Assembly: GCA_014384285.1 (NCBI GenBank)
Contig: JACNGE010000014.1
Coordinates: 72,427-136,426 of the forward strand
Length of the DNA: 64,000 nucleotides
DNA from: Actinomycetota bacterium
GTDB lineage: Bacteria; Actinomycetota; Acidimicrobiia; Actinomarinales; Actinomarinaceae
Direction: 5' to 3'
The notes under the pieces are model-generated. The model did not search any database and was not told where the DNA came from. It saw nothing but the letters and a program-made list of their open reading frames with translations. The first letter of the stretch is position 1. Each line of letters starts with the position of its first letter. This document shows positions 1,550 through 44,425 of the stretch, piece by piece. The translations under genes and the position numbers were made by a program.

Positions 1550-3488
1550 TGAATTCTTCCTCTAAAGGCTCAGTTCCCCATCCAAAGCTGCCAATGAGAA
1601 TTAGAAGTGTGCCAACAATTGCAAGAGGAAGCATTTTGTAAATTACAGCATATCCTAGAAACGGAAGACCCGAAGCTAAGATAATTGGAAAATAAGATGG
1701 ATTTGGAAGAACTATATCTTCTTTTGGATTCAAGCCTTCTTCTTCGAGTTCTAGCATTAATGCATCAGCAGAATCTTTTCTAACAGGTCTACCATCTTCA
1801 TCTTCATCGTATTTCATATGCCAAAAGTCATCGAGTGATTTCACTTCTGGAGCTTTGGAAAAGTTCCAGACAGGAGTGGGTGAGGGAATACTCCATTCAA
1901 TAGTCCGTGCATCCCATGGGTCAAATCCAGCATCTGGACCTTTTCTTCTGGAATAAATCCAGTTAGCCATGAAGACCAGTATTGAGAGAGCAATTATGAA
2001 TGCACCGATAGAGACAATAAGATTCCAAAAACCCAAATTTGTTTCTTCAGCATACACCCAAGTTCTCCTTACCTGTCCCTGCAGACCAAGCCAATGCATC
2101 GGACCAAAGGTAAGATTAAAACCAATTATCATTAGCCAAAAATGTATTTTTCCAAGTGCTTCGTTATACATTTTTCCCCATACTTTAGGAAACCAGTAAT
2201 AAAGACCAGAAAAAATACCAAACATAGCGCCACCGAAGAGAACATAATGGAAGTGTGCAACAACATAGTATGTATCAGTTTGCTGGGTATCTGCTGGAAC
2301 AATTGAGTGAGTCACTCCACTTAGACCACCAATAACAAACATACCAATAAACCCTAGGGAAAAGAGCATAGGGGTATTTAATTTTAATTTTCCTCCCCAA
2401 ATGGTTCCTAGCCAGTTAAATATTTTGACACCAGTAGGAACAGCAATGACCATTGTCGACAAACCAAAGCCTGCCTGTGCTACAGGACTTATAGCTGATG
2501 CAAACATATGGTGGGCCCAAACACCAAAACCAATAAAAGCTATACCAAATCCTGCAAAGACTATTGCTGGATAACCAAAGAGCGGCTTTCTAGAAAAAGT
2601 TGGTAAAACTTCAGAGACAATCCCAAAAGCAGGAAGTATTAGTATATATACTTCGGGGTGTCCAAATAACCAAAATAGATGTTGCCACAAAATCGGATCT
2701 CCGCCGCCCTCTGTTAAAAAGAATGTTGTACCAAACTGTCTATCAAATGTGACATAAAAGAGCGCTATTGCAATTATTGGAAGGGAAAACGCTAATAAAA
2801 AGGAAACAGCAAATGTCATCCATGTAAATACTGGCATCCTCATTAATCGCATACCTTTTGTTCTCATATTTAATATCGTCGTAATGAAGTTAAATGCTGA
2901 TACTAATGAAGCAATTCCAAGAATCTGAAGACCTATTGCCCAGTAATCCATAGCTGTTCCTGGAGAGTATTTAAACCCAGCATTAGGTTGATATCCAAAC
3001 CAACCACCATTAGGAGCAGAGCCTAATCTACTGACTTCTTCAGCTAGATAACCACCTTGGGGTGCTCCTGCTGTACCAAACAAAAAAGTTGAGTACAGAA
3101 AGACTCCACCAAAAATGAAAATCCAGAAAGAAAGCGCGTTTAGTCTTGGGAAAGCTACATCTCTTGCACCAATTTGCAGAGGTAGAAGATAGTTAAAGAA
3201 GGCGGCACTAATCGGCATAATCGCCAAAAATATCATTGTTGTTCCATGCATTGTAAACATGGCGTTATATTCAGCAGCACTTAAAAAGTTATTGTCTGGT
3301 GAAGCAAGTTGAATTCTTAGCAGTAGAGCTTCTAATCCACCTACAAGTAAAAAGAAGAATGCTGCGTATCCGTACATTATACCTATTCGTTTGTGGTCAA
3401 CGGTTGTTATCCAGCTCCAGATGCCTGTTTCGGAAGAAGGCCTTTTAAAAATATTTGATTGTTTTCTTGGTTCAATAATTTTTGTCAT
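1527..3488 (-). CDS. ctaD: Cytochrome c oxidase subunit I (heme-copper oxidase catalytic subunit) with a C-terminal 2-TM extension
   Basis: 653 aa with classic subunit I motifs (WFFGHPEVYILILPAFG, HHMF, His ligands) and 12 or more TM helices. It overlaps ctaC and ctaE by a few nt. Confidence 0.95.
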   Translation of the reverse strand: MTKIIEPRKQSNIFKRPSSETGIWSWITTVDHKRIGIMYGYAAFFFLLVGGLEALLLRIQLASPDNNFLSAAEYNAMFTMHGTTMIFLAIMPISAAFFNYLLPLQIGARDVAFPRLNALSFWIFIFGGVFLYSTFLFGTAGAPQGGYLAEEVSRLGSAPNGGWFGYQPNAGFKYSPGTAMDYWAIGLQILGIASLVSAFNFITTILNMRTKGMRLMRMPVFTWMTFAVSFLLAFSLPIIAIALFYVTFDRQFGTTFFLTEGGGDPILWQHLFWLFGHPEVYILILPAFGIVSEVLPTFSRKPLFGYPAIVFAGFGIAFIGFGVWAHHMFASAISPVAQAGFGLSTMVIAVPTGVKIFNWLGTIWGGKLKLNTPMLFSLGFIGMFVIGGLSGVTHSIVPADTQQTDTYYVVAHFHYVLFGGAMFGIFSGLYYWFPKVWGKMYNEALGKIHFWLMIIGFNLTFGPMHWLGLQGQVRRTWVYAEETNLGFWNLIVSIGAFIIALSILVFMANWIYSRRKGPDAGFDPWDARTIEWSIPSPTPVWNFSKAPEVKSLDDFWHMKYDEDEDGRPVRKDSADALMLELEEEGLNPKEDIVLPNPSYFPIILASGLPFLGYAVIYKMLPLAIVGTLLILIGSFGWGTEPLEEEFIGDGENE

Positions 3489-10564: not shown

Positions 10565-11933
10565 TGTGTATGTATTCGTCTGAATTCAATAGTTGTACAG
10601 TGTGGCTCCCAAAAAAGTCTCTTTGCGCTTGGATTAAATTTGAAGGATTATCATCTGCACTTAAATTAAGGTACCAACTCAAACTTGTAGAAAAAACTGG
10701 TAATGAAATATTTTTTAATATTGAGGAACTTACAATTTCTTTTATATTTTTAAGATTTTTTTTCAGCAAATCATGTAACTGACTCGAATGTAATAACTTA
10801 TCGGATGAATTATTTATTTCTATAAATTCATCAAGCATCTCAGACCTAATAATGCATCCACCGCTCCAGTTATTAAAAATATCTTCAAAATTAAAGGAAA
10901 ATTTGTTAACTTCGTTGTACCTCTCAATTATCGTAAGACCTTGAATCATAGATGCAACTCTTCCAAAATAGAGAGATTTAGCAAGGGCGGTTTGAAGACT
11001 CAATTTTTCTGAATCATCCAAATTATCTTTATTATCTTGAATTCGTGATGTAGAACTTGTTTTCCAAAAATAATCTGTATTACTTTGAACCCGTGCGTCA
11101 TATGCTGAATATATTGATGGAGCTGATACTCCAAGTTCAAATGAAGTTTCTATCGTTAGTCTTCCAGTCCCCTTGTTATTTGCCAAAGATTTTATTAAAT
11201 CAACAGTAAAGTATTCTCCGTCTTTTTTTCTTAGTATTTCAGAGGTGATTTCAATTAAGTATGAAGATTGATTTATTTTTTTCAGAGAACTAAAAAAATC
11301 TGCTATTTGAAGGTTGTTAAATCCAGTTCTTTTTAATAAATGATAACTTTCAGCAATCAGCTGCATTTCTGCATATTCAATACCGTTATGAACCATTTTT
11401 ATAAAGTGACCAGAACCAGAGCCTTCATAAAAACCTACACAGTCGTGTGGTGCTTTTGCTGAAATAGAAGATAATAATTCAATCAAATCTCCATCTAGAT
11501 TGTTATTTGAGCCCACCATTATAGCTGGGCCATATCTTGCCCCCTCTTCTCCACCGGAAACACCCATGCCAATGAATTTTATATTCTTTTTAGACAAGTT
11601 TTCCCCATGATGAATACTTTCTTGATAAAAAGAGTTACCGCCATCAATAACTACATCATTTTCATCTAACAAATTCGAGAGCTGATTTATTAATTTGCTA
11701 GTAGGTTCTCCTGATGGAATCATTAATAGAAGATTTCTTGGACGATCCATATTCTCAACAAGCTCTTCAAGGGTTGTGTATCCTGAGAAATTTCCATCGA
11801 ATTCTTTTTGTACAGCTTCTAATTTTTTGGAAGAATTATTGAAAGCTTTTATATTTGTACCCTTTTCTGCAATATTTAGGCCAATGTTTTTCCCCATTAC
11901 ACCAAGTCCAATTAATCCAATTTCACCCAACAT
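10542..11933 (-). CDS. gnd: 6-phosphogluconate dehydrogenase, decarboxylating
   Basis: 463 aa with an N-terminal GLIGLGVMG Rossmann motif and the 6PGDH C-terminal domain. Confidence 0.9.
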   Translation of the reverse strand: MLGEIGLIGLGVMGKNIGLNIAEKGTNIKAFNNSSKKLEAVQKEFDGNFSGYTTLEELVENMDRPRNLLLMIPSGEPTSKLINQLSNLLDENDVVIDGGNSFYQESIHHGENLSKKNIKFIGMGVSGGEEGARYGPAIMVGSNNNLDGDLIELLSSISAKAPHDCVGFYEGSGSGHFIKMVHNGIEYAEMQLIAESYHLLKRTGFNNLQIADFFSSLKKINQSSYLIEITSEILRKKDGEYFTVDLIKSLANNKGTGRLTIETSFELGVSAPSIYSAYDARVQSNTDYFWKTSSTSRIQDNKDNLDDSEKLSLQTALAKSLYFGRVASMIQGLTIIERYNEVNKFSFNFEDIFNNWSGGCIIRSEMLDEFIEINNSSDKLLHSSQLHDLLKKNLKNIKEIVSSSILKNISLPVFSTSLSWYLNLSADDNPSNLIQAQRDFFGSHTVQLLNSDEYIHIDWREDE

Positions 11934-13255
11934 TATTTTGGATCTTTCATTATTTTTAAATCTTTTAACTTACTTACTAATTTGCTTCTCATTTTTATTT
12001 CAATTAATAATAAATCAGAACTATTTTTTACTTCTAAAATTTCACCAAATCTATTTACGTGTTCCAAATTTTTTGGCTCAACCAAGAATGAGTCTTTTAT
12101 AGTTTCTCCATATATTTCTTTTGAAATTGTTTCGACAAGCTCATCAATACCAGTTTGTTTTAACGATGAAATAAATAAAGCTTGAGGATATCTTTCTGCT
12201 AGGTCGTTTAAAGAAGCTCTGTCGATTTTATCAACTTTATTAAATACCATAATTTCATTAGCACTAACTTCAATTTGTTTTAGGATCTCTCTTACCGTAG
12301 CAATATGCATCTCAGGAATAGCTGTTGCTGCATCAACTACATGTATTAATAGATCTGCACTCGTAGCAACTAATAAAGTTGATTTAAAAGACTCAATGAG
12401 TGTTGTTGGTAAATTTTGAATAAAGCCAACTGTGTCTGATAAGATCAAAGGCTCTTGGACATCTTTTACGGGAAGCTCTCTTTGTAAAGAGTCAACTGTC
12501 GCAAAAAGTTCATCTGCAGCATATGCATCTGAATTAGTCAAAGATTTCAACAAGGTAGATTTTCCAGCATTCGTATACCCAACAATTGATACCAAAGGAG
12601 TGTTCTTCTTCTCTCTGGAACTCGCCTGAAGTAGTCGCTGCCTCTCAATTTTCTTAAGCTCTTTTCGTAATTTATTTATGCGGTTATCAATTAACCTACT
12701 GTCAGTTTCTAACTTAGCTTCACCAGGTCCTCGTGTTCCAATTCCACCACCTTGTTGGTTTAAAGTTTTCCCCAAACCTGCAAGTCTAGGTTTAAGATAT
12801 ACAGACATGGCTAACTCAACTTGTAGATTGGCCTCTTTCGACTGTGCATGTAATGCGAAAATATCAAGAATTAAACCAGTTCGGTCAACTACATCGCACT
12901 GAAAAATTTCTCTAAGTTCTTTTTGCTGATTTGGATTGAGTTCACAATCAAAAATAACTACATCAATATCATTCGCCTTTGATAAAACCTCAAGGTCATT
13001 GATAGAACCTTTTCCAATGAAAGTTTTTGGATCAATTCGGTCAACTCTTTTTGTTTGAACAATTGTTGGATTTGAACCTGCTGTTTTTACAAGACTTGTT
13101 AGCTCTTTTAAAGATTCTTCACGATCAGCTCTTGTTTGATTTTTTAGAATAATTCCAACAAGCAAAGCTTTTTGAACCGTTACAAATATATCTTTGTCAG
13201 ATACTGTTAGCAACCGTCTATCAGTTTGATTTGGATTATTATTTCTTTGATTCAA
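11933..13255 (-). CDS. hflX: GTPase HflX
   Basis: 440 aa with an HflX N-domain followed by a G-domain (GYTNAGKSTL G1, DTVGF G3, NKVD G4). Confidence 0.9.
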   Translation of the reverse strand: MNQRNNNPNQTDRRLLTVSDKDIFVTVQKALLVGIILKNQTRADREESLKELTSLVKTAGSNPTIVQTKRVDRIDPKTFIGKGSINDLEVLSKANDIDVVIFDCELNPNQQKELREIFQCDVVDRTGLILDIFALHAQSKEANLQVELAMSVYLKPRLAGLGKTLNQQGGGIGTRGPGEAKLETDSRLIDNRINKLRKELKKIERQRLLQASSREKKNTPLVSIVGYTNAGKSTLLKSLTNSDAYAADELFATVDSLQRELPVKDVQEPLILSDTVGFIQNLPTTLIESFKSTLLVATSADLLIHVVDAATAIPEMHIATVREILKQIEVSANEIMVFNKVDKIDRASLNDLAERYPQALFISSLKQTGIDELVETISKEIYGETIKDSFLVEPKNLEHVNRFGEILEVKNSSDLLLIEIKMRSKLVSKLKDLKIMKDPK

Positions 13256-13308: not shown

Positions 13309-13403
13309 TGGCGGAGGTGGACGGGAATCGAACCCGCCAAAGACTTTTACACCTTTCACCAGTTTTGAAGACCGGGGAGCCCACCAGGCGCTCATTCACC
13401 TCC
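13309..13403 (-). tRNA. 95-nt long-variable-arm tRNA with anticodon UCA. It would decode UGA, so it is a tRNA-Sec (selC) candidate or a Ser-type opal suppressor.
   Basis: Reverse complement: GGAGGTGA-AT-GAGC-GCCTGGTGG-GCTC-C-CCGGT-CTTCAAA-ACTGG-(21-nt variable arm)-GCGGG-TTCGATT-CCCGT-CCACCTCC-G-CCA. The anticodon loop CUUCAAA gives U33, anticodon UCA, A37. The discriminator is G73 and CCA is encoded. There are 8 nt between the T-stem and the discriminator, the 8/5 layout typical of tRNA-Sec, and the loop is identical to the E. coli selC anticodon loop. Confidence 0.7.
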
Positions 13404-37635: not shown

Positions 37636-38811
37636 TTAAAAGTTATTTAAATTAACAAATTTTTTAATATTAAAAATTAGATAAGCTCCAACTGCTAGAC
37701 CAAAATAAATTAGACCTGTATAGCCAATATTTAAATAGGTAAATCCCAGACTAATATGAGCAATTGCGCTGCCAACAAATACTAAACTATCGCTTTTTAT
37801 ATTTAGGTTTATAGAATTGCTAATTGAATAATCTGATATAGCTGAGCTTATTGCAATATATGTAAAGTTCCAACCTAGACCAAGAAGATAAAGGCCAATT
37901 TTTAAAAATAAAACATTGGTATTAAACAATGAAACGGTACAACTAAGAATCAGTATAAGACTGCCGATTATTGCGAATAAGTTTGATCCATATTTATCAA
38001 CTAATTTTCCAAGAATGGGAGATAATAAAAACATACCCAATGTGTGGTAGCTTATAATTGCTCCAACAAGTTTTATTGTTTCACCTATATCTTGCACGTG
38101 CAAAGGTGTTGCAGACATAATTAAAACCATAACAAAATGATTTAAAACTAAAATTCTTGTTAATAATTTTGCAGTTCCATCTAGCTGGGAAAGCTTAACT
38201 TTATTTTCAGGGATCAACTTTTTATTTAAAGTACTTTCTTTTTGGGAAAACAAAAGCACTGACATGCCAGCAAGAAACATTCCAAATGTAGCAATAAAAT
38301 ATCCAACAATAAGATCAGATCCAAACCACTTATTAAATATTTCTGAATACTCTCCAACTAATCGAGGGCCAAATACAGATCCAAATACTGAAAACCATAC
38401 AGCCAGAGACAGAGCAGTTGCTTTAAAGCTTTCTGATGCGACAAATGATGCAACATACCTAGTTTGAAGTGCTGCAGATTGACCTATACCCAATACAAAA
38501 GCTCCAAAAAGTAATAATATAAATGAGTCAATAAATAAAGAGTAAACCTGAATAAGCCCACCAACACTTCCAATAAGAAAGGTGTTAGATAGCGCTTTAT
38601 TTTTTGAGTATCTTTGAGACATTTTATCAAACATTTGTGTACCGATAACTGCACCTCCAACACCAACAGCATTAGGGAACCCAATTAGATATGGATTTGA
38701 GGTGACTTCCCGAGCAGCTAATACTGTAATCGTTACAGCAGCGATAAATCCAGTTGAGGAAAATGCAACTGAAAGCAAAAGATGGAATATTTTTTTAATT
38801 TCTAAGACCAC
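37636..38811 (-). CDS. MFS transporter
   Basis: 391 aa with 12 TM helices. Confidence 0.6.
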   Translation of the reverse strand: MVLEIKKIFHLLLSVAFSSTGFIAAVTITVLAAREVTSNPYLIGFPNAVGVGGAVIGTQMFDKMSQRYSKNKALSNTFLIGSVGGLIQVYSLFIDSFILLLFGAFVLGIGQSAALQTRYVASFVASESFKATALSLAVWFSVFGSVFGPRLVGEYSEIFNKWFGSDLIVGYFIATFGMFLAGMSVLLFSQKESTLNKKLIPENKVKLSQLDGTAKLLTRILVLNHFVMVLIMSATPLHVQDIGETIKLVGAIISYHTLGMFLLSPILGKLVDKYGSNLFAIIGSLILILSCTVSLFNTNVLFLKIGLYLLGLGWNFTYIAISSAISDYSISNSINLNIKSDSLVFVGSAIAHISLGFTYLNIGYTGLIYFGLAVGAYLIFNIKKFVNLNNF

Positions 38812-38889
38812 AGATAAAGAATAACGAAATTTGTTGTTTATAAATTATTTTCTAAAAGTAATTGTAAAAATTTTGAGCTACATTAGCAT

Positions 38890-38956
38890 TATCTTGCATG
38901 AAGAGAGGGTAACCTCAGCAACCTAGAAAGCAAACAAAGGTGCTAGAGATGCGGTT
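38890..38956 (+). promoter_or_regulatory. SAM-riboswitch-like aptamer (SAM-I/SAM-IV superfamily core blocks) in the metK leader
   Basis: GCATGAAGAGAGGGTAACCTCAGCAACC...AAGGTGCTAGAGATGCGG is homologous, block by block, to a second element upstream of metY. It has AAGAGAGG after P1, a short hairpin followed by CAGCAACC, an AAGGTGC block and a GAGATG P1 3' strand. A U6 tract and a CCUUCC anti-SD-like run follow, upstream of the AAGGAG SD. Confidence 0.6.
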
Positions 38957-39013
38957 TTTTAAAACAAAAAATATGCTACCTTCCTTCATAAACATTTTAA
39001 GTAAGGAGAGCTT

Positions 39014-40102
39014 ATGAATAAATTAGTCACTGCTGAAACAGTCTCACCAGGGCATCCAGACAAGATAGCAGATTTAATCTCTGACTACGTTTTAACTCAA
39101 GCACTAGAAAACAACAGTTCTTCAAAAGTTGCAGTTGAAACTTTTTTAACTGGAACAAAAAATGGTGGGTTGGTACTCGTTGGAGGAGAGATTAGCGAAA
39201 TCGCAAATATCTCTACAGAAGATATTAATGACATTGTAAAAATGGCTTTAGATAAAACAATCAAAACTAGTTTTGAAGACTTTGATTTAGACAAACTTTC
39301 CATATATAACGAACTTACCCCACAATCCGAAGAAATAAGAGCGGCTGTTGAAGATGATAAAAATCAAGGAGCTGGAGATCAGGGAATCATGGTTGGTTAT
39401 GCAACCAACAGAACCAAGTCATTCATGCCTGTTACGTTTGATAAATCAAGGAATATTCAAAAAAGCTTATGGGACCTACAAAATGCTGACTCAATGCTTG
39501 ATCTCGATTCAAAAGTTCAAGTCACAAGTGGAGGTGATAAAACCAAAGTAGTTTTTTCAACACAACATCAAGTGGGTATTGATCTAGAAAATTTACACGA
39601 AAAAGTTACTGAGATTGTTTCACAACACATTTCAGAAGATTTCATTCTAGATTTAAATCCTTCAGGCTCTTTTGTAAAAGGTGGACCAGCAGGAGACACT
39701 GGTCTTACAGGCCGAAAGATTGTTGTTGACGCATATGGACCTTCAGTTCCTGTGGGAGGAGGAGCTTTTTCTGGAAAAGATCCTAGCAAAGTTGACAGGT
39801 CAGCAGCTTATGCCGCCAGACACCTATCTAAAAATATTGTTGCACACGATTTAGCTGATAGGTGCCAAGTTAGGGTTGCTTATGCGATTGGTAAAGCAGA
39901 CCCTTATGAGTTATCTGTTGACACATTTGGCACAGAAAAAAAAGAGTCAAATGTGCTCAATGATTTTATTACAAAGTTTGATATGAGACCTGCTGCAATT
40001 ATTGAGAGATTAAGTCTATTAAATGTGGACTATAGAACAGATACACTATTTTCTCATTTTGGCCATGACGATCGTAACTGGGAAAAAATAGAAAATTTCT
40101 AG
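39014..40102 (+). CDS. metK: S-adenosylmethionine synthetase
   Basis: 362 aa with the N-terminal ETVSPGHPDKIADLISD block and the C-terminal GGGAFSGKDPSKVDRSAAYAAR glycine-rich loop. Confidence 0.9.
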   Translation: MNKLVTAETVSPGHPDKIADLISDYVLTQALENNSSSKVAVETFLTGTKNGGLVLVGGEISEIANISTEDINDIVKMALDKTIKTSFEDFDLDKLSIYNELTPQSEEIRAAVEDDKNQGAGDQGIMVGYATNRTKSFMPVTFDKSRNIQKSLWDLQNADSMLDLDSKVQVTSGGDKTKVVFSTQHQVGIDLENLHEKVTEIVSQHISEDFILDLNPSGSFVKGGPAGDTGLTGRKIVVDAYGPSVPVGGGAFSGKDPSKVDRSAAYAARHLSKNIVAHDLADRCQVRVAYAIGKADPYELSVDTFGTEKKESNVLNDFITKFDMRPAAIIERLSLLNVDYRTDTLFSHFGHDDRNWEKIENF

Positions 40103-40133
40103 AAACAAATAAAAAGACTGATATAATTTAAAT

Positions 40134-40200
40134 ATACATTAAGAGAAGGTTAAGACCTCAGCAACCTGGATGACTCTCCAAGGTGCTTGAAGATGTGGCA
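40134..40200 (+). promoter_or_regulatory. SAM-riboswitch-like aptamer in the metY-metX leader
   Basis: ACATTAAGAGAAGGTTAAGACCTCAGCAACCTGGATGACTCTCCAAGGTGCTTGAAGATGTGG is a paralogue of the metK leader element. A TATAAT -10 box lies at 40122..40127 just upstream, and a CCCTCTCC anti-SD lies downstream near the GGAGA SD. Confidence 0.6.
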
Positions 40201-40249
40201 GAAATGCAACTAACTAGTCAAAACCCTCTCCAACTTAAAGGAGAAACAT

Positions 40250-41530
40250 ATGAAATACGAATCAAAACTACTACATGCAGGTTGGGATTCTGATGCTGAT
40301 TCAGAGGGCTCAATTACCGTGCCAATTTATAAAACTACAGCTTATCAATTTAATAATACTGAGCACGCTGCAAACTTGTTTGGATTAAAAGAATTTGGAA
40401 ACATTTACTCTAGACTTGGAAACCCAACAGTTGGGGCTCTTGAAGCTAGATTAACTGCTTTAGAGGATGGAGCAATGTGTGTGGCATTAGCATCTGGGAC
40501 ATCTGCCGTAATGTATTCATTAATTAATATTATGAGCCAGGGTGACAACTTTGTTACAGCTAGTCAACTATATGGTGGAACATACACAATGTTTGATAAT
40601 ATTTTGCCAGAGTATGGAATTAATGCAAAAAAAGTAGATATAACTGATCTAAAAGCTGTTGAAGATCAAATAGATGAAAAGACAAGAGCAGTCTACTGTG
40701 AGACAGTAACTAACCCAGGACTTGTAGTTGCAGATGTATCAGCACTTTCAGAAATCGCACACAAACATGGCATACCTTTGATTGTTGATGCAACATTTAC
40801 AACATCTGCCCTTCAAAAGTCTTTTGATTTTGGAGCAGATATTGTTGTATATTCACTTACAAAGTGGATGTCAGGTCACGGAAGAGTTATAGCAGGAGCC
40901 GTGATAGAAAAAGGTGGTTTCGATTGGGGAAATGGAAACTTTCCACTTTATGACAAACCAGATACTAGCTATGGCGGCATGCGCTGGGGCCATGATCTTG
41001 GTGACCTTAGTAATGTCGCATATTCTTTAAGGTTAAGAACAGTTCCGCTTAGAAACTTAGGAGCCAATATGTCACCTGACACCGCTTTTGAAGTTATGTC
41101 AGGACTTGAAACCCTTAGTCTAAGAATGGAAAGACATTGTAGTAATGCAAATAAAGCTGCAGAGTTTTTATCCAACCATGACTTAGTTGAATGGGTCAGG
41201 TTTCCCGGACTAAAGGATGATCCATCACATGAATTATCCAAAAAATATCTTAACGGTACTGGTGGAACTATGGTTGTTTTTGGTATCAAGGGTGGAAAAG
41301 AGGCTGGTCAAAAGTTTATCGATAACCTTAAGATGTTTAGACACGTAGCGAATGTTGGAGATACTAGATCATTAGCAATACATCCTGCTACTACAACTCA
41401 TTCTCAATTAGATGATGAGGCTTTAGTAGCCGCAGGGTCACCGCCAGAACTAGTTAGACTATCTATAGGTATTGAAAACATAGAAGATATTATTGAAGAT
41501 CTTTCGCAGGCACTTGAAAGTTCAAAATAG
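40250..41530 (+). CDS. metY: O-acetylhomoserine aminocarboxypropyltransferase (O-acetylhomoserine sulfhydrylase)
   Basis: 426 aa PLP-dependent Cys/Met metabolism family enzyme with the SLTKWMSGHG PLP-lysine motif. Confidence 0.9.
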   Translation: MKYESKLLHAGWDSDADSEGSITVPIYKTTAYQFNNTEHAANLFGLKEFGNIYSRLGNPTVGALEARLTALEDGAMCVALASGTSAVMYSLINIMSQGDNFVTASQLYGGTYTMFDNILPEYGINAKKVDITDLKAVEDQIDEKTRAVYCETVTNPGLVVADVSALSEIAHKHGIPLIVDATFTTSALQKSFDFGADIVVYSLTKWMSGHGRVIAGAVIEKGGFDWGNGNFPLYDKPDTSYGGMRWGHDLGDLSNVAYSLRLRTVPLRNLGANMSPDTAFEVMSGLETLSLRMERHCSNANKAAEFLSNHDLVEWVRFPGLKDDPSHELSKKYLNGTGGTMVVFGIKGGKEAGQKFIDNLKMFRHVANVGDTRSLAIHPATTTHSQLDDEALVAAGSPPELVRLSIGIENIEDIIEDLSQALESSK

Positions 41531-42599
41531 CAATTTATCACTACTCCAGATTGAACAATTTAAATTAGAATCTGGACTAATTTTAGATGAAGTTGAAATA
41601 GCCTATACAACGTATGGGCAACTTTCAAAATCTGGAGATAATGCAATTCTTGTTTTCCATGCCCTAACCGGAAGCCATCTACTTGCGGGAGAATACGAAC
41701 AATTTGATGATTCAAATCTTCCATGGAATGATGAACTAGAACTTGGTTGGTGGGATGACTTTGTTGGTCCCAACAGAGCCATTGATACAAGTAAATATTT
41801 CGTTATATGTGCAAATTATCTTGGTGGTTGTTATGGGTCCACGGGACCAAATTCTGGGCAATTTTATCCAGGAAAAGAATTTCCAGAAATAGATTTTAAA
41901 GATATTGAGAACACACAAAAAAAATTAGTTGAACATCTAGGCGTTAAATCATTACATGCTGTGGTAGGACCTTCAATTGGAGGACTGATGGCTCTGGAGT
42001 TTGCTGCTAGATTTCCTAATTTTGTTAAAAAAATTATTTCAATTTCTAGTGGATTTGAAATTTCTACATTGCAACTACTGCACAATCTTGAGCAGGCTTA
42101 TGTATTGAACTTAGGAAAAAATTCTGAGGAAAGAAAAAAAGAGTATCTAGCTCTGGCAAGAATGATTGCGCACAAAACGTATATTTCACTTGAACTTCTT
42201 GCAAACAGAGCAAAAGAAGAAACTAAATACAAACCCGAGCATTTAGATGGATTTATAAAAACCTCTGAGGAATCATATATGATGCACCAAGGCGAAAAAT
42301 TTATAGAAAGATTTACAATTGAATCATATTTATCAATAATACGTGGATGGCAAAATTTCAAGTTGCCTGAAAGTCTGCTTCCAAACTTGTCATCTACTGA
42401 CGTATTAATTTTAAGTGTTGACTCAGATGTATGTTTCTACCCCGAGCAACAAACCCGATTATCTAAAATTTTGAGTCAAAATGGTTGTACGGTAAAAATT
42501 GAGCATTTGCATTCTGAAAAAGGTCACGATAGTTTTTTGTTAGAACCTAATATATACGAGTATCCAATTAAAACCTTTCTAGAATCTCGCGAAAAATAA
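41493..42599 (+). CDS. metX: Homoserine O-acetyltransferase
   Basis: 368 aa alpha/beta hydrolase with the GPSIGG nucleophile elbow. The annotated TTG start overlaps metY by 38 nt, so the start is uncertain. Confidence 0.85.
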   Translation: MKIFRRHLKVQNSNLSLLQIEQFKLESGLILDEVEIAYTTYGQLSKSGDNAILVFHALTGSHLLAGEYEQFDDSNLPWNDELELGWWDDFVGPNRAIDTSKYFVICANYLGGCYGSTGPNSGQFYPGKEFPEIDFKDIENTQKKLVEHLGVKSLHAVVGPSIGGLMALEFAARFPNFVKKIISISSGFEISTLQLLHNLEQAYVLNLGKNSEERKKEYLALARMIAHKTYISLELLANRAKEETKYKPEHLDGFIKTSEESYMMHQGEKFIERFTIESYLSIIRGWQNFKLPESLLPNLSSTDVLILSVDSDVCFYPEQQTRLSKILSQNGCTVKIEHLHSEKGHDSFLLEPNIYEYPIKTFLESREK

Positions 42600-42747: not shown

Positions 42748-42819
42748 GCCGAGGTAGCTTAGTGGTAGAGCAGCTCACTCGTAATGAGCAGGTCGAGGGT
42801 TCAATTCCCTCCTTCGGCT
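42748..42819 (+). tRNA. tRNA-Thr (anticodon CGU)
   Basis: Cloverleaf GCCGAGG-TA-GCTT-AGTGGTA-GAGC-A-GCTCA-CTCGTAA-TGAGC-AGGTC-GAGGG-TTCAATT-CCCTC-CTTCGGC-T. The anticodon loop CUCGUAA gives anticodon CGU, and the 3' CCA is not fully encoded. Confidence 0.9.
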
Positions 42820-42874
42820 CAAAATAACTTTGAAATTTAATCGTATTTCACAAATAATTAACTAGTCTTTTTAT

Positions 42875-43156: not shown

Positions 43157-44425
43157 ATGTCTAATCAAATCGAAGAAAAATTTTTATTAAACATTGATAT
43201 TGAAAAAAAATATGTCATAGCTTTAAGTGGTGGGGTTGATAGTGCGGTACTTGCTCATCTAGCAAAAAAGTATTGTAAAAATGTTAGAACATTATTTGTA
43301 AATCACAATCAGAAACATTCAAACGAACTTGAATCTCAGGCAGAACACATAGCTAGTGAATTTAATCTTGAATTTGTCTCCTTGCAAACTTCACTTGAGC
43401 CAAATTCATCTGAAACACAGATGAGAAATATTAGAATTAATGAATTATATTTAAATATTGAAGAGGATGAATATCTTCTATTTGGACACACGCTTTCGGA
43501 TAAAGTTGAAACATTTTTTTTAAATATATTCAGAGGCACCCACTTACAAGGATTAAAGTCTACGCCTCATAGGGTCAACAGGACACTAAGACCTCTATTG
43601 GATGTCTCAAAAGAAGAAGTAATTGCTTACGCTGAAATTAATAAAATTGAATATTTAAATGATGAAACTAACTTTAATCAAGAAATAAATAGAAACTGGA
43701 TAAGAAATAATATTTTCAAAGAAGTACAGGAAAGATTTACTGGCTCACTTGAAGAAAAAGTTAAACAAATTATTTCAGAAGTGGAGTATTTACTTCCTCA
43801 GAATATACCAATATTAAAATTTGTTAAGCTAAGCAAAGGCTATATAGAGCTTCCAATTTCAATGATAAATTTTAAGAATCCGGAACTACTTTCTTTGTTT
43901 TCATTAATTGGAAAAGCCATTGGCCTATCAGGAATGGAATCAAAAGATCTTGAGAAAATAAAAGAAGTGATTAGAACAGGCAAGCAGACAAGTTTTACTA
44001 GTGAGTGGTATTGTATAAAGTCTTCTTCACTTTTAATTTTTATCAATAAAAAATTGTGGGTTGAACAAAAAAAACAACATGAATTTAATTATGGATACCT
44101 TAACTTGTCTAAACATCCTAGTGTGCCATTTTATAATAATTGGAATATCGCAGTTCCCACGCAGGAGGAGAGAATTTTAACAAGAACACTTAAAAACGGT
44201 GACAAAATACAAATCAACGACAGTAACCAGAAAGTATCTGAAGTAATGAGGTCCTTCGGCATCAGAGGATTAATGAGAGAAGTCTGGCCGGTTGTACTAT
44301 TAGAGAACGAAATTATTTGGATTCCCGGTATTAGAAAATCTGATAAGGCTCTTGACTTTCAAAAAAATGATTTTTCACATATAATTGTTGCTTCAGTGCA
44401 AAAGGATAAATTTGAAAGTTACTAG
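43157..44425 (+). CDS. tilS: tRNA(Ile)-lysidine synthetase
   Basis: 422 aa with an N-terminal PP-loop ATPase motif (LSGGVDS). Confidence 0.85.
   Translation: MSNQIEEKFLLNIDIEKKYVIALSGGVDSAVLAHLAKKYCKNVRTLFVNHNQKHSNELESQAEHIASEFNLEFVSLQTSLEPNSSETQMRNIRINELYLNIEEDEYLLFGHTLSDKVETFFLNIFRGTHLQGLKSTPHRVNRTLRPLLDVSKEEVIAYAEINKIEYLNDETNFNQEINRNWIRNNIFKEVQERFTGSLEEKVKQIISEVEYLLPQNIPILKFVKLSKGYIELPISMINFKNPELLSLFSLIGKAIGLSGMESKDLEKIKEVIRTGKQTSFTSEWYCIKSSSLLIFINKKLWVEQKKQHEFNYGYLNLSKHPSVPFYNNWNIAVPTQEERILTRTLKNGDKIQINDSNQKVSEVMRSFGIRGLMREVWPVVLLENEIIWIPGIRKSDKALDFQKNDFSHIIVASVQKDKFESY

Follow-up and report, generated by a model that had tools for sequence, protein, structure and literature searches.

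Leaders of metK and metY-metX in Candidatus Actinomarina are SAM-I/IV-class riboswitches with a predicted translational OFF switch

The S-adenosylmethionine (SAM) riboswitch SAM-I regulates metK and metY in many bacteria; the SAM-IV riboswitch was reportedly introduced by Weinberg et al. in 2008 and has a cryo-EM structure (PMC6890682); Trausch et al. are said to have solved the structure of env87 (PDB 4L81, 4OQU) in 2014. Here we describe two leaders, one upstream of metK and the other upstream of metY-metX, in a 64 kb window, by which we mean the whole 64,000-nucleotide stretch analysed (assembly GCA_014384285.1, contig JACNGE010000014.1, positions 72,427 to 136,426 of the forward strand). 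A MetY protein search identifies the source as Candidatus Actinomarina (Actinomarinales, the OCS155 marine actinobacteria). The closest described system is the SAM-I/SAM-IV variant class of Weinberg et al. (2010), with 473 representatives listed under "several phyla, marine" and mostly metagenomic; it lacks the internal loop of helix P2 and probably also the pseudoknot from the P2 tip (PMC2864571). A later structural comparison, PMC6890682, gives the class an uninterrupted P2, no pseudoknot PK-1 and a second pseudoknot subdomain, PK-2, in common with SAM-IV. In the founding alignment the junction helix P4 is optional, and a pseudoknot from the P3 loop to the tail is annotated (SS_cons_1) in the same columns as the PK-2 described below (PMC2864571). 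For env87, a member of the class, there are crystal structures with SAM (4L81, 4OQU), and probing indicates that SAM promotes PK-2, as summarised in PMC8525861.

An Rfam scan of the whole 64 kb window yielded two riboswitch matches above the curated thresholds, both of them to the SAM-I/IV family RF01725. The metK leader (38891-38981) scores 59.0 bits (E = 3.6e-7) and the metY leader (40131-40223) 75.4 bits (E = 8.7e-11), against a gathering score of 41.1 bits. Both matches cover model positions 1-99 of 99, including the hairpin 3' of P1 and the tail. RF01725 is the top match inside the SAM clan CL00012 for both leaders, weaker clan matches being suppressed; RF00634 (SAM-IV) is outscored in the clan competition in both cases, and RF00162 (SAM-I) is the best match for neither. 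A permissive Rfam rescan of 38500-40500 gave no further credible match. In the cmscan alignment neither copy departs from the model at any highly conserved (upper-case) consensus position, and the binding-core columns (CAU/AUG of P1, AAGAG of J1/2, CAACC/AGGUG at the base of P3) are invariant across 50 distinct leaders. A sequence-only reading of this DNA had seen the same ordered blocks in the two leaders and had taken them for a SAM-I/SAM-IV-type core ahead of metK and metY-metX. The blocks are indeed all present where it placed them, far above chance, and the assignment is borne out by the positive result of the SAM-I/IV model for both leaders.

We therefore read the metK and metY-metX leaders as SAM-I/IV-class SAM riboswitches, each starting a few nucleotides past its own promoter, with a probability of about 0.9; this figure applies to the whole best explanation, including the two-state expression platform discussed below. 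Binding of SAM by both leaders would be expected by homology to the crystallised and probed env87, from the conservation of the core and from the metK/metY/metX context. The parts of the two aptamers are as follows, with the basis of each call in brackets.

38891..38981, + strand: metK aptamer, extent of the Rfam match (RF01725, 59.0 bits)
38896..38952, + strand: metK three-way junction P1/P2/P3 (Rfam alignment, RNAalifold, pair counts)
38896-38899 with 38949-38952, + strand: metK P1, GCAU:AUGC (Rfam alignment)
38900-38904, + strand: metK J1/2, GAAGA (sequence)
38905-38916, + strand: metK P2, GAGG-GUAA-CCUC (sequence, Rfam alignment)
38916-38923, + strand: metK core block CAGCAACC (sequence)
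38917-38944, + strand: metK P3 with CAACC and AGGUG; AAGGUGC at 38937-38943 (sequence)
38945-38948, + strand: metK J3/1, AGAG (sequence)
38954-38965, + strand: metK hairpin 3' of P1, GUUUU-UU-AAAAC (Rfam alignment, compensatory changes)
38929-38932, + strand: metK PK-2 5' strand in the P3 loop, AGCA (complement of 38974-38977, covariation)
38974-38977, + strand: metK PK-2 3' strand, UGCU (covariation; pseudoknot columns of the founding alignment)
40131..40223, + strand: metY aptamer, extent of the Rfam match (RF01725, 75.4 bits)
40136..40196, + strand: metY three-way junction (Rfam alignment, pair counts, RNAalifold, minimum free energy (MFE) fold)
40136-40139 with 40193-40196, + strand: metY P1, ACAU:AUGU (Rfam alignment)
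40140-40144, + strand: metY J1/2, UAAGA (sequence)
40145-40159, + strand: metY P2, 5 bp with one bulged A and a 4-nt loop (Rfam alignment)
40159-40166, + strand: metY core block CAGCAACC (sequence)
40160-40187, + strand: metY P3; AAGGUGC at 40180-40186 (sequence)
40188-40192, + strand: metY J3/1 (sequence)
40198-40207, + strand: metY hairpin 3' of P1, GCA-GAAA-UGC (Rfam alignment, pair counts, MFE fold)
40171-40175, + strand: metY PK-2 5' strand in the P3 loop, UGACU (complement of 40216-40220)
40216-40220, + strand: metY PK-2 3' strand, AGUCA (covariation; pseudoknot columns of the founding alignment)

The functional aptamers thus measure about 82-85 nt (38896-38977 for metK, 40136-40220 for metY). 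The earlier estimate of a minimised scaffold of about 65 nt does not hold: its spans (38890-38956 and 40134-40200) end at the 3' strand of P1 and omit both the 3' hairpin and the 3' strand of PK-2, and P2 and P3 are of normal class length. Nor is P4 shortened, as had been suggested; it is absent from the junction, and the 3' hairpin and PK-2 replace it, an architecture by which SAM-I/IV is defined (PMC6890682; PMC2864571 supplement). The gap from P3 to the 3' strand of P1 is 4-5 nt in both leaders and holds no helix. P2 is uninterrupted in both, with no internal loop and no kink-turn, and inspection by eye gave no PK-1 from the P2 tip, where the loop is too short and J3/1 offers no complement. 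The GNRA-like hairpin that had been assigned to both copies stands for the metK P2 loop (GUAA) and fails for the metY P2, the GNRA loop of metY (GAAA) sitting in the 3' hairpin. An A-rich linker separates the 3' hairpin from the 3' strand of PK-2 in each leader. For metY, the single-sequence MFE fold reproduces P1-P4.

Pair counts for the nested helices were taken from a MAFFT alignment of the 50 leaders, built without reference to structure. Standard pairs occupy 93.6% of the nested-helix cells, as against 32-48% when the partners are slid, and RNAalifold independently predicts P1, P2 and P3. P3 and the 3' hairpin both show compensatory changes, most of which distinguish the metK copy from the metY copy; two pairs of the 3' hairpin differ on both sides in this way (C-G/U-A and A-U/U-A). 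P1 is effectively a 4-bp helix, as the fifth pair of the model is unpaired in 48 of the 50 sequences. When the two window leaders, or entire metY leaders, were aligned with plain MAFFT, the 3' parts came out misaligned, and pairs of the hairpin around the Shine-Dalgarno (SD) sequence were counted with anchor-based scripts. An apparent covariation of P2 among metK leaders (GGGAAACC against GGAATTCC) was rejected, being just loop variation on an invariant GAGG/CCUC stem.

Among 18 metK leaders, compensatory changes affect three of the five pairs of PK-2 (G-C to A-U, C-G to U-A, and U-A/U-G/A-U), with 95.6% of its cells paired, while the nested helices are all invariant in the same 18 leaders. 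The two strands co-vary by sequence type (AGCA:UGCU, (U)GCCA:UGGC(A), UACCA:UGGUA, AGCUA:UAGCU, GACUAU:AUAGUC), and in an own-versus-cross matrix each loop is matched better by its own tail than by the tails of other types. In metY orthologues PK-2 reaches up to 7 bp (UGACUAU:AUAGUCA). Covariation in homologous leaders, which the sequence-only reading had named as a way to check its proposal, is present in P3, in the 3' hairpin and in PK-2.

Relatives were collected by a MetY protein search with one genome per species, which gave about 35 related loci (best MetY 96% identical), and a covariance model built from the 50 leaders was used to find the leaders in them. Besides the window, this model detected the metK leader in each of the 23 loci with sequence available upstream of metK, and the metY leader in each of the 34 with sequence available upstream of metY, so that both are conserved well outside this genome. 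Rescoring of 13 Actinomarina loci with Rfam placed all of them above the RF01725 threshold (69.3-77.4 bits for metY, 57.9-67.0 bits for metK), RF01725 again being the best match of the SAM clan. In nine of the 34 metY loci (L009, L011, L016, L023-L027 and L033) metK does not occur in the 3 kb ahead of metY; all nine still have the complete metY riboswitch together with its TGATATAAT promoter (at about 2880-3000 in each), indicating that the two leaders are independent units. Two contigs, L020 and L032, labelled as Gammaproteobacteria and Akkermansiaceae metagenome-assembled genomes, have a metY 89% identical to that of Actinomarina, and L020 carries both Actinomarina-type riboswitches; the two contigs are probably mis-binned. 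In 45 distant metY loci, the narrow 50-leader model detected no SAM-I/IV-type element, its sole match (L073, 30 bits) being a classic SAM-I. This locus, a Melioribacteraceae metY homologue, has the SAM-I upstream at 2810-2913 on the + strand (RF00162, 86.1 bits). Its correct call as RF00162 indicates that the Rfam scan separates SAM-I from SAM-I/IV, and it also means that, in another phylum, metY is controlled by a SAM-clan riboswitch of a different class.

Promoter elements lie directly upstream of both aptamers.

38862-38889, + strand: likely metK promoter, -35 TTGTAA at 38862-38867, 16-nt spacer, -10 TAGCAT at 38884-38889 (conserved in 17 orthologous leaders)
40119..40127, + strand: metY promoter, extended -10 TGATATAAT (promoter scan, 10/12 with TG extension)

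The metK promoter ends 6 nt before P1. It falls below the threshold of the consensus promoter scan; its hexamers stand at a fixed distance from P1 in 17 orthologous leaders (ATTG(A/T)AA ... TA(C/G/A)CAT). The extended -10 of metY contains the TATAAT box (40122-40127) already noticed before the second aptamer, ends 8 nt before P1 and is invariant in 20 of 20 orthologous leaders, including genomes without metK upstream. Given these conserved promoters, each riboswitch would start essentially at the transcription start, and we place the starts of the metK and metY leaders accordingly, as predicted positions.

We then considered how the aptamers might control their genes. Neither leader has an intrinsic terminator on the + strand, so control is most likely exerted on translation. 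The features that matter here lie between PK-2 and the start codons.

40224-40231, + strand: metY switching tract CCCUCUCC (pairs with the SD or with the aptamer 5' strand)
40227-40244, + strand: metY SD-sequestering hairpin UCUCC-N8-GGAGA, SD GGAG at 40240-40243 (fold, orthologues)
38978-38989, + strand: metK switching tract ACCUUCCUUCAU (complementary to the aptamer 5' strand, the SD and the start-codon region)
39003..39009, + strand: metK SD AAGGAGA, GGAG at 39005-39008, start ATG at 39014 (sequence)

Both CU-rich anti-SD runs (38978-38989 and 40224-40231) and both SDs had been pointed out in the sequence-only reading, which proposed that they serve translational control; this remains the most likely mode and is supported by the analyses of pairing and of SD occlusion. 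For metY, the SD hairpin has a predicted energy of -6.7 kcal/mol (z = -2.74), and among the window's 29 candidate starts that carry an SD, that of metY has its SD most occluded. The hairpin preserves its stem in 32 orthologues, with a variable loop, and when P1 is enforced the SD's GGA is predicted to pair within the hairpin in all 32. The same tract is also complementary to the purine strand GAGAAGG of the aptamer (J1/2 and the 5' strand of P2). In the window copy, the tract would form a duplex of -8.1 kcal/mol with the SD and one of -8.8 kcal/mol with the aptamer 5' strand, both at p <= 0.02. Across 14 metY leaders, tract-aptamer duplexes range from -8.8 to -12.7 kcal/mol with shuffle means of about -4 (14 of 14 at p <= 0.02), and tract-SD duplexes lie around -8.1 kcal/mol (13 of 14 at p <= 0.05). 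Of the non-window metY leaders, the three whose unconstrained MFE folds were inspected (L012, L024 and L030) form the aptamer-tract helix and leave the SD free. The state with P1 enforced is predicted to be 1-5 kcal/mol less stable.

In metK the tract pairs with the aptamer strand AUGAAG.AGAGGGU (38898-38910) at a predicted -15.1 kcal/mol, where shuffles average -7.2 kcal/mol (p = 0.003), and this helix is part of the unconstrained MFE fold of the window leader. In a second metK clade AUGAAG:CUUCAU becomes AUGGAG:CUCCAU, a compensatory change. The UUCAU of the tract is in addition complementary to the start-codon region AUGAA. The predicted probability that the metK SD is unpaired drops from 0.59 if P1 is prevented to 0.15 if it is enforced, and the P1-enforced state is predicted to be 0-8 kcal/mol less stable. 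In the absence of ligand the OFF state is put at 2-8 kcal/mol less stable than the ON state, a difference that ligand binding could plausibly cover.

These folding predictions are most consistent with a translational OFF switch, with a strong case for metY and a less strong one for metK. At low SAM, the purine-rich 5' part of the aptamer, comprising the end of P1, J1/2 and the 5' strand of P2 (for example GAGAAGG), would pair with the pyrimidine tract past PK-2, the SD would be left free, and metK or metY-metX would be translated. With SAM bound, P1, J1/2, P2 and PK-2 would be locked and the pyrimidine tract released; the tract could then pair with the SD and, in metK, also with the start-codon region, so that the SD would be blocked and the genes of SAM and methionine biosynthesis would stay untranslated. 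In this two-state model the tract after PK-2 pairs with either the SD or the conserved ligand-binding strand of the aptamer (J1/2 and P2 5', GAGAAGG or AUGAAGAGAGG), which would make that strand a built-in SD mimic. We tentatively suggest, at somewhat less than even odds, that such a compact relay is common to both copies across Ca. Actinomarina and may be general for translation-acting switches of the SAM clan. The expression platform is the sole part of this work that is not obviously in the literature consulted.

Several observations weigh against this picture. The pairing of the window metK tract with its SD is weak (-5.3 kcal/mol, p = 0.24), and for one metK clade (L008, L012, L013 and L034) the simple model predicts no extra occlusion of the SD in the bound state. 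The metY tract reads CCCUCUCC in the window and its three closest relatives (L001, L002 and L004), and CCUUCUCC or CUUCUCC in other relatives; with CCCUCUCC, the predicted antisequestor acquires an A-C mismatch and the SD hairpin is one pair shorter. The mismatch weakens the antisequestor, so that in this clade the SD hairpin is predicted even for the ligand-free fold and hence in both states. The sequester helices show one-sided changes alone, because the SD is itself constrained. As to the aptamers, their single-sequence folds are no stabler than shuffles (z = -0.97 and -0.07), and PK-2 of the window copies is not significant when taken alone (p = 0.44 for the 4 bp of metK, p = 0.29 for the 5 bp of metY). 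Shuffle tests say little about single PK-2 helices, which are short (4-7 bp; p from 0.0 to 0.88).

The alternative that survives best, which we nevertheless regard as unlikely, has SAM-I/IV aptamers acting with no pyrimidine-tract relay, through Rho-dependent termination or mRNA decay after ribosome exclusion, through a purely kinetic switch, or through steric effects of PK-2 near the ribosome-binding region. The mismatch-weakened antisequestor of the window-clade metY, with its SD hairpin predicted in both states, would fit such a scheme, as would the metK SD pairing, which is no better than shuffles in many leaders (p <= 0.05 in just 6 of 22); published work on the class (PMC8525861) stresses stabilisation of PK-2 in switching. 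The position of PK-2 argues the other way, since 20-28 nt separate its 3' strand from the SD downstream, which makes direct occlusion of the SD by PK-2 impossible. So do the tract pairings, those with the aptamer being significant in the window metK leader and in 14 of 14 metY leaders and those with the SD in 13 of the 14, and the conserved stem and variable loop of the SD hairpin. We continue to favour the relay by the pyrimidine tract.

Transcription attenuation, with the U6 tract after P1 of metK acting as a terminator, appears highly improbable. The six U residues remarked on earlier are there (38955-38960, after the 3' strand of P1 in the window metK); they make up the loop and the 5' arm of the 3' hairpin in metK, a hairpin of the class completed by the following AAAAC, and a terminator role for them is contradicted by sequence comparison. 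The U-run is not conserved in orthologues, which read GGUUAUACAAC or GGUUUAUAAC, the metY leader is without any U-run, and the + strand of either leader is free of terminator-like sites. We give equally little credence to the idea that the two elements are relics in decay, or that their ligand is something other than SAM. In the window metK the upper part of P3 is indeed weak and the fifth pair of P1 mismatched, as might be expected of a relic; set against this, both copies retain all highly conserved core positions, both are kept in relatives with MetK identity down to about 77%, nested helices are kept and PK-2 changes compensated, and the neighbouring genes are exclusively those of SAM and methionine synthesis.

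A new, minimised aptamer class of about 65 nt, distinct from the described families, is the least credible reading of all: the P2 of just 4-5 bp, the missing helix between P3 and the 3' strand of P1 and the streamlined source genome would suit it, yet it is refuted by RF01725 scores well over the threshold across all 99 model positions, by a PK-2 that is present and covarying, by a founding-alignment consensus in which the junction P4 helix is optional, and by near-identical rows in that alignment itself. The metY-type row JCVI_SCAF_1096626988086/1428-1520 is identical to the L015 leader (PMC2864571 supplement, motif-only), and metK-type rows include JCVI_SCAF_1096626988086/192-294, JCVI_SCAF_1096626993230/305-217 and dozens more. 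The ocean (GOS) scaffold JCVI_SCAF_1096626988086 carries both leaders about 1.24 kb apart, a spacing as in the window. The string CA.ACC.U.GGA, which marks metY-type leaders, occurs in about 104 rows of the 2010 alignment and CA.ACC.U.AGA, seen in some metK-type leaders, in at least 23, neither string being exclusive to Actinomarina-like rows. A search for Actinomarina coding flanks in the available part of the flank-containing 2010 supplement found none. The near-identical rows identify the leaders as already known members of the class, and the hint of a new minimised variant in the sequence-only reading falls away; its guess of a low-GC, streamlined actinobacterial host proved right. The two small additions made here are the matching of these rows to Ca. 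Actinomarina and the model of the expression platform.

The genes served by the two leaders are the following.

39014..40102, + strand: metK, S-adenosylmethionine synthetase, 362 amino acids (TIGR01034, 351.6 bits, cutoff 309.4)
40250-41530, + strand: metY, O-acetylhomoserine sulfhydrylase (TIGR01326, 556.4 bits, cutoff 495.1)
41493 or 41514 to 42599, + strand: MetX-like homoserine O-acyltransferase (MetX models, 275 bits, below cutoffs)

The MetX-like open reading frame overlaps the end of metY by 17-38 nt, depending on which TTG start is used (41493 or 41514), so that the two genes form an operon. Its 275 bits fall below every curated NCBIfam MetX cutoff (331-500), so the product is a divergent homoserine O-acyltransferase of uncertain acyl specificity. 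A tRNA-Thr (CGT) lies at 42748-42820 (+), between the met operon and a tilS-like gene (43157-44425). Elsewhere in the window, a selenocysteine tRNA (anticodon TCA) was found at 13309-13403 on the - strand by Rfam (tRNA-Sec, 75.3 bits) and also by ARAGORN; it adjoins hflX (11933-13255, -), with no adjacent selA, selB or selD, and implies selenoprotein synthesis in a streamlined actinobacterium.

With these results, two leaders of Ca. Actinomarina can be labelled confidently, as SAM-I/IV control of the SAM synthetase and of methionine synthesis by direct sulfhydrylation. Within the founding alignment, a large block of ocean-metagenome rows that had no assignment before closely matches the leaders of an abundant, ultra-small marine actinobacterium, which fits the view that streamlined genomes use riboswitches over protein regulators. 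The importance beyond annotation is small; the platform model is simple and testable and opens no new question.

Compared with known SAM riboswitches, the window leaders share with SAM-I (RF00162) the sequences of the ligand-binding core and the P1/P2/P3 arrangement. They differ from it in that SAM-I has a four-way junction with P4, a kink-turn in P2, PK-1 and usually a terminator platform, none of which is present here. The likeness to SAM-IV (RF00634) is closer, extending to a junction without P4, a hairpin after P1, PK-2, actinobacterial origin and the same SAM-binding core. In SAM-IV, an internal loop divides P2 into P2a and P2b, and the P2 tip takes part in PK-1 (PMC6890682), whereas in the window leaders P2 is an uninterrupted stem of 4-5 bp with a tetraloop and has no PK-1 partner. 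Relative to env87, the window copies are AU-rich and are without the helix between P3 and the 3' strand of P1 that PMC6890682 reports for the solved structure. In the window leaders the SD lies 20-28 nt beyond PK-2, where it would be handled by a separate pyrimidine tract. From SAM-I/IV (RF01725) as a class there is no class-level difference: the leaders have its core (CAU, AAGAG, CAACC, AGGUG and AUG), its plain P2 without PK-1, its hairpin 3' of P1 and its PK-2 from the P3 loop to the tail, together with its marine origin and its context of methionine and SAM genes.

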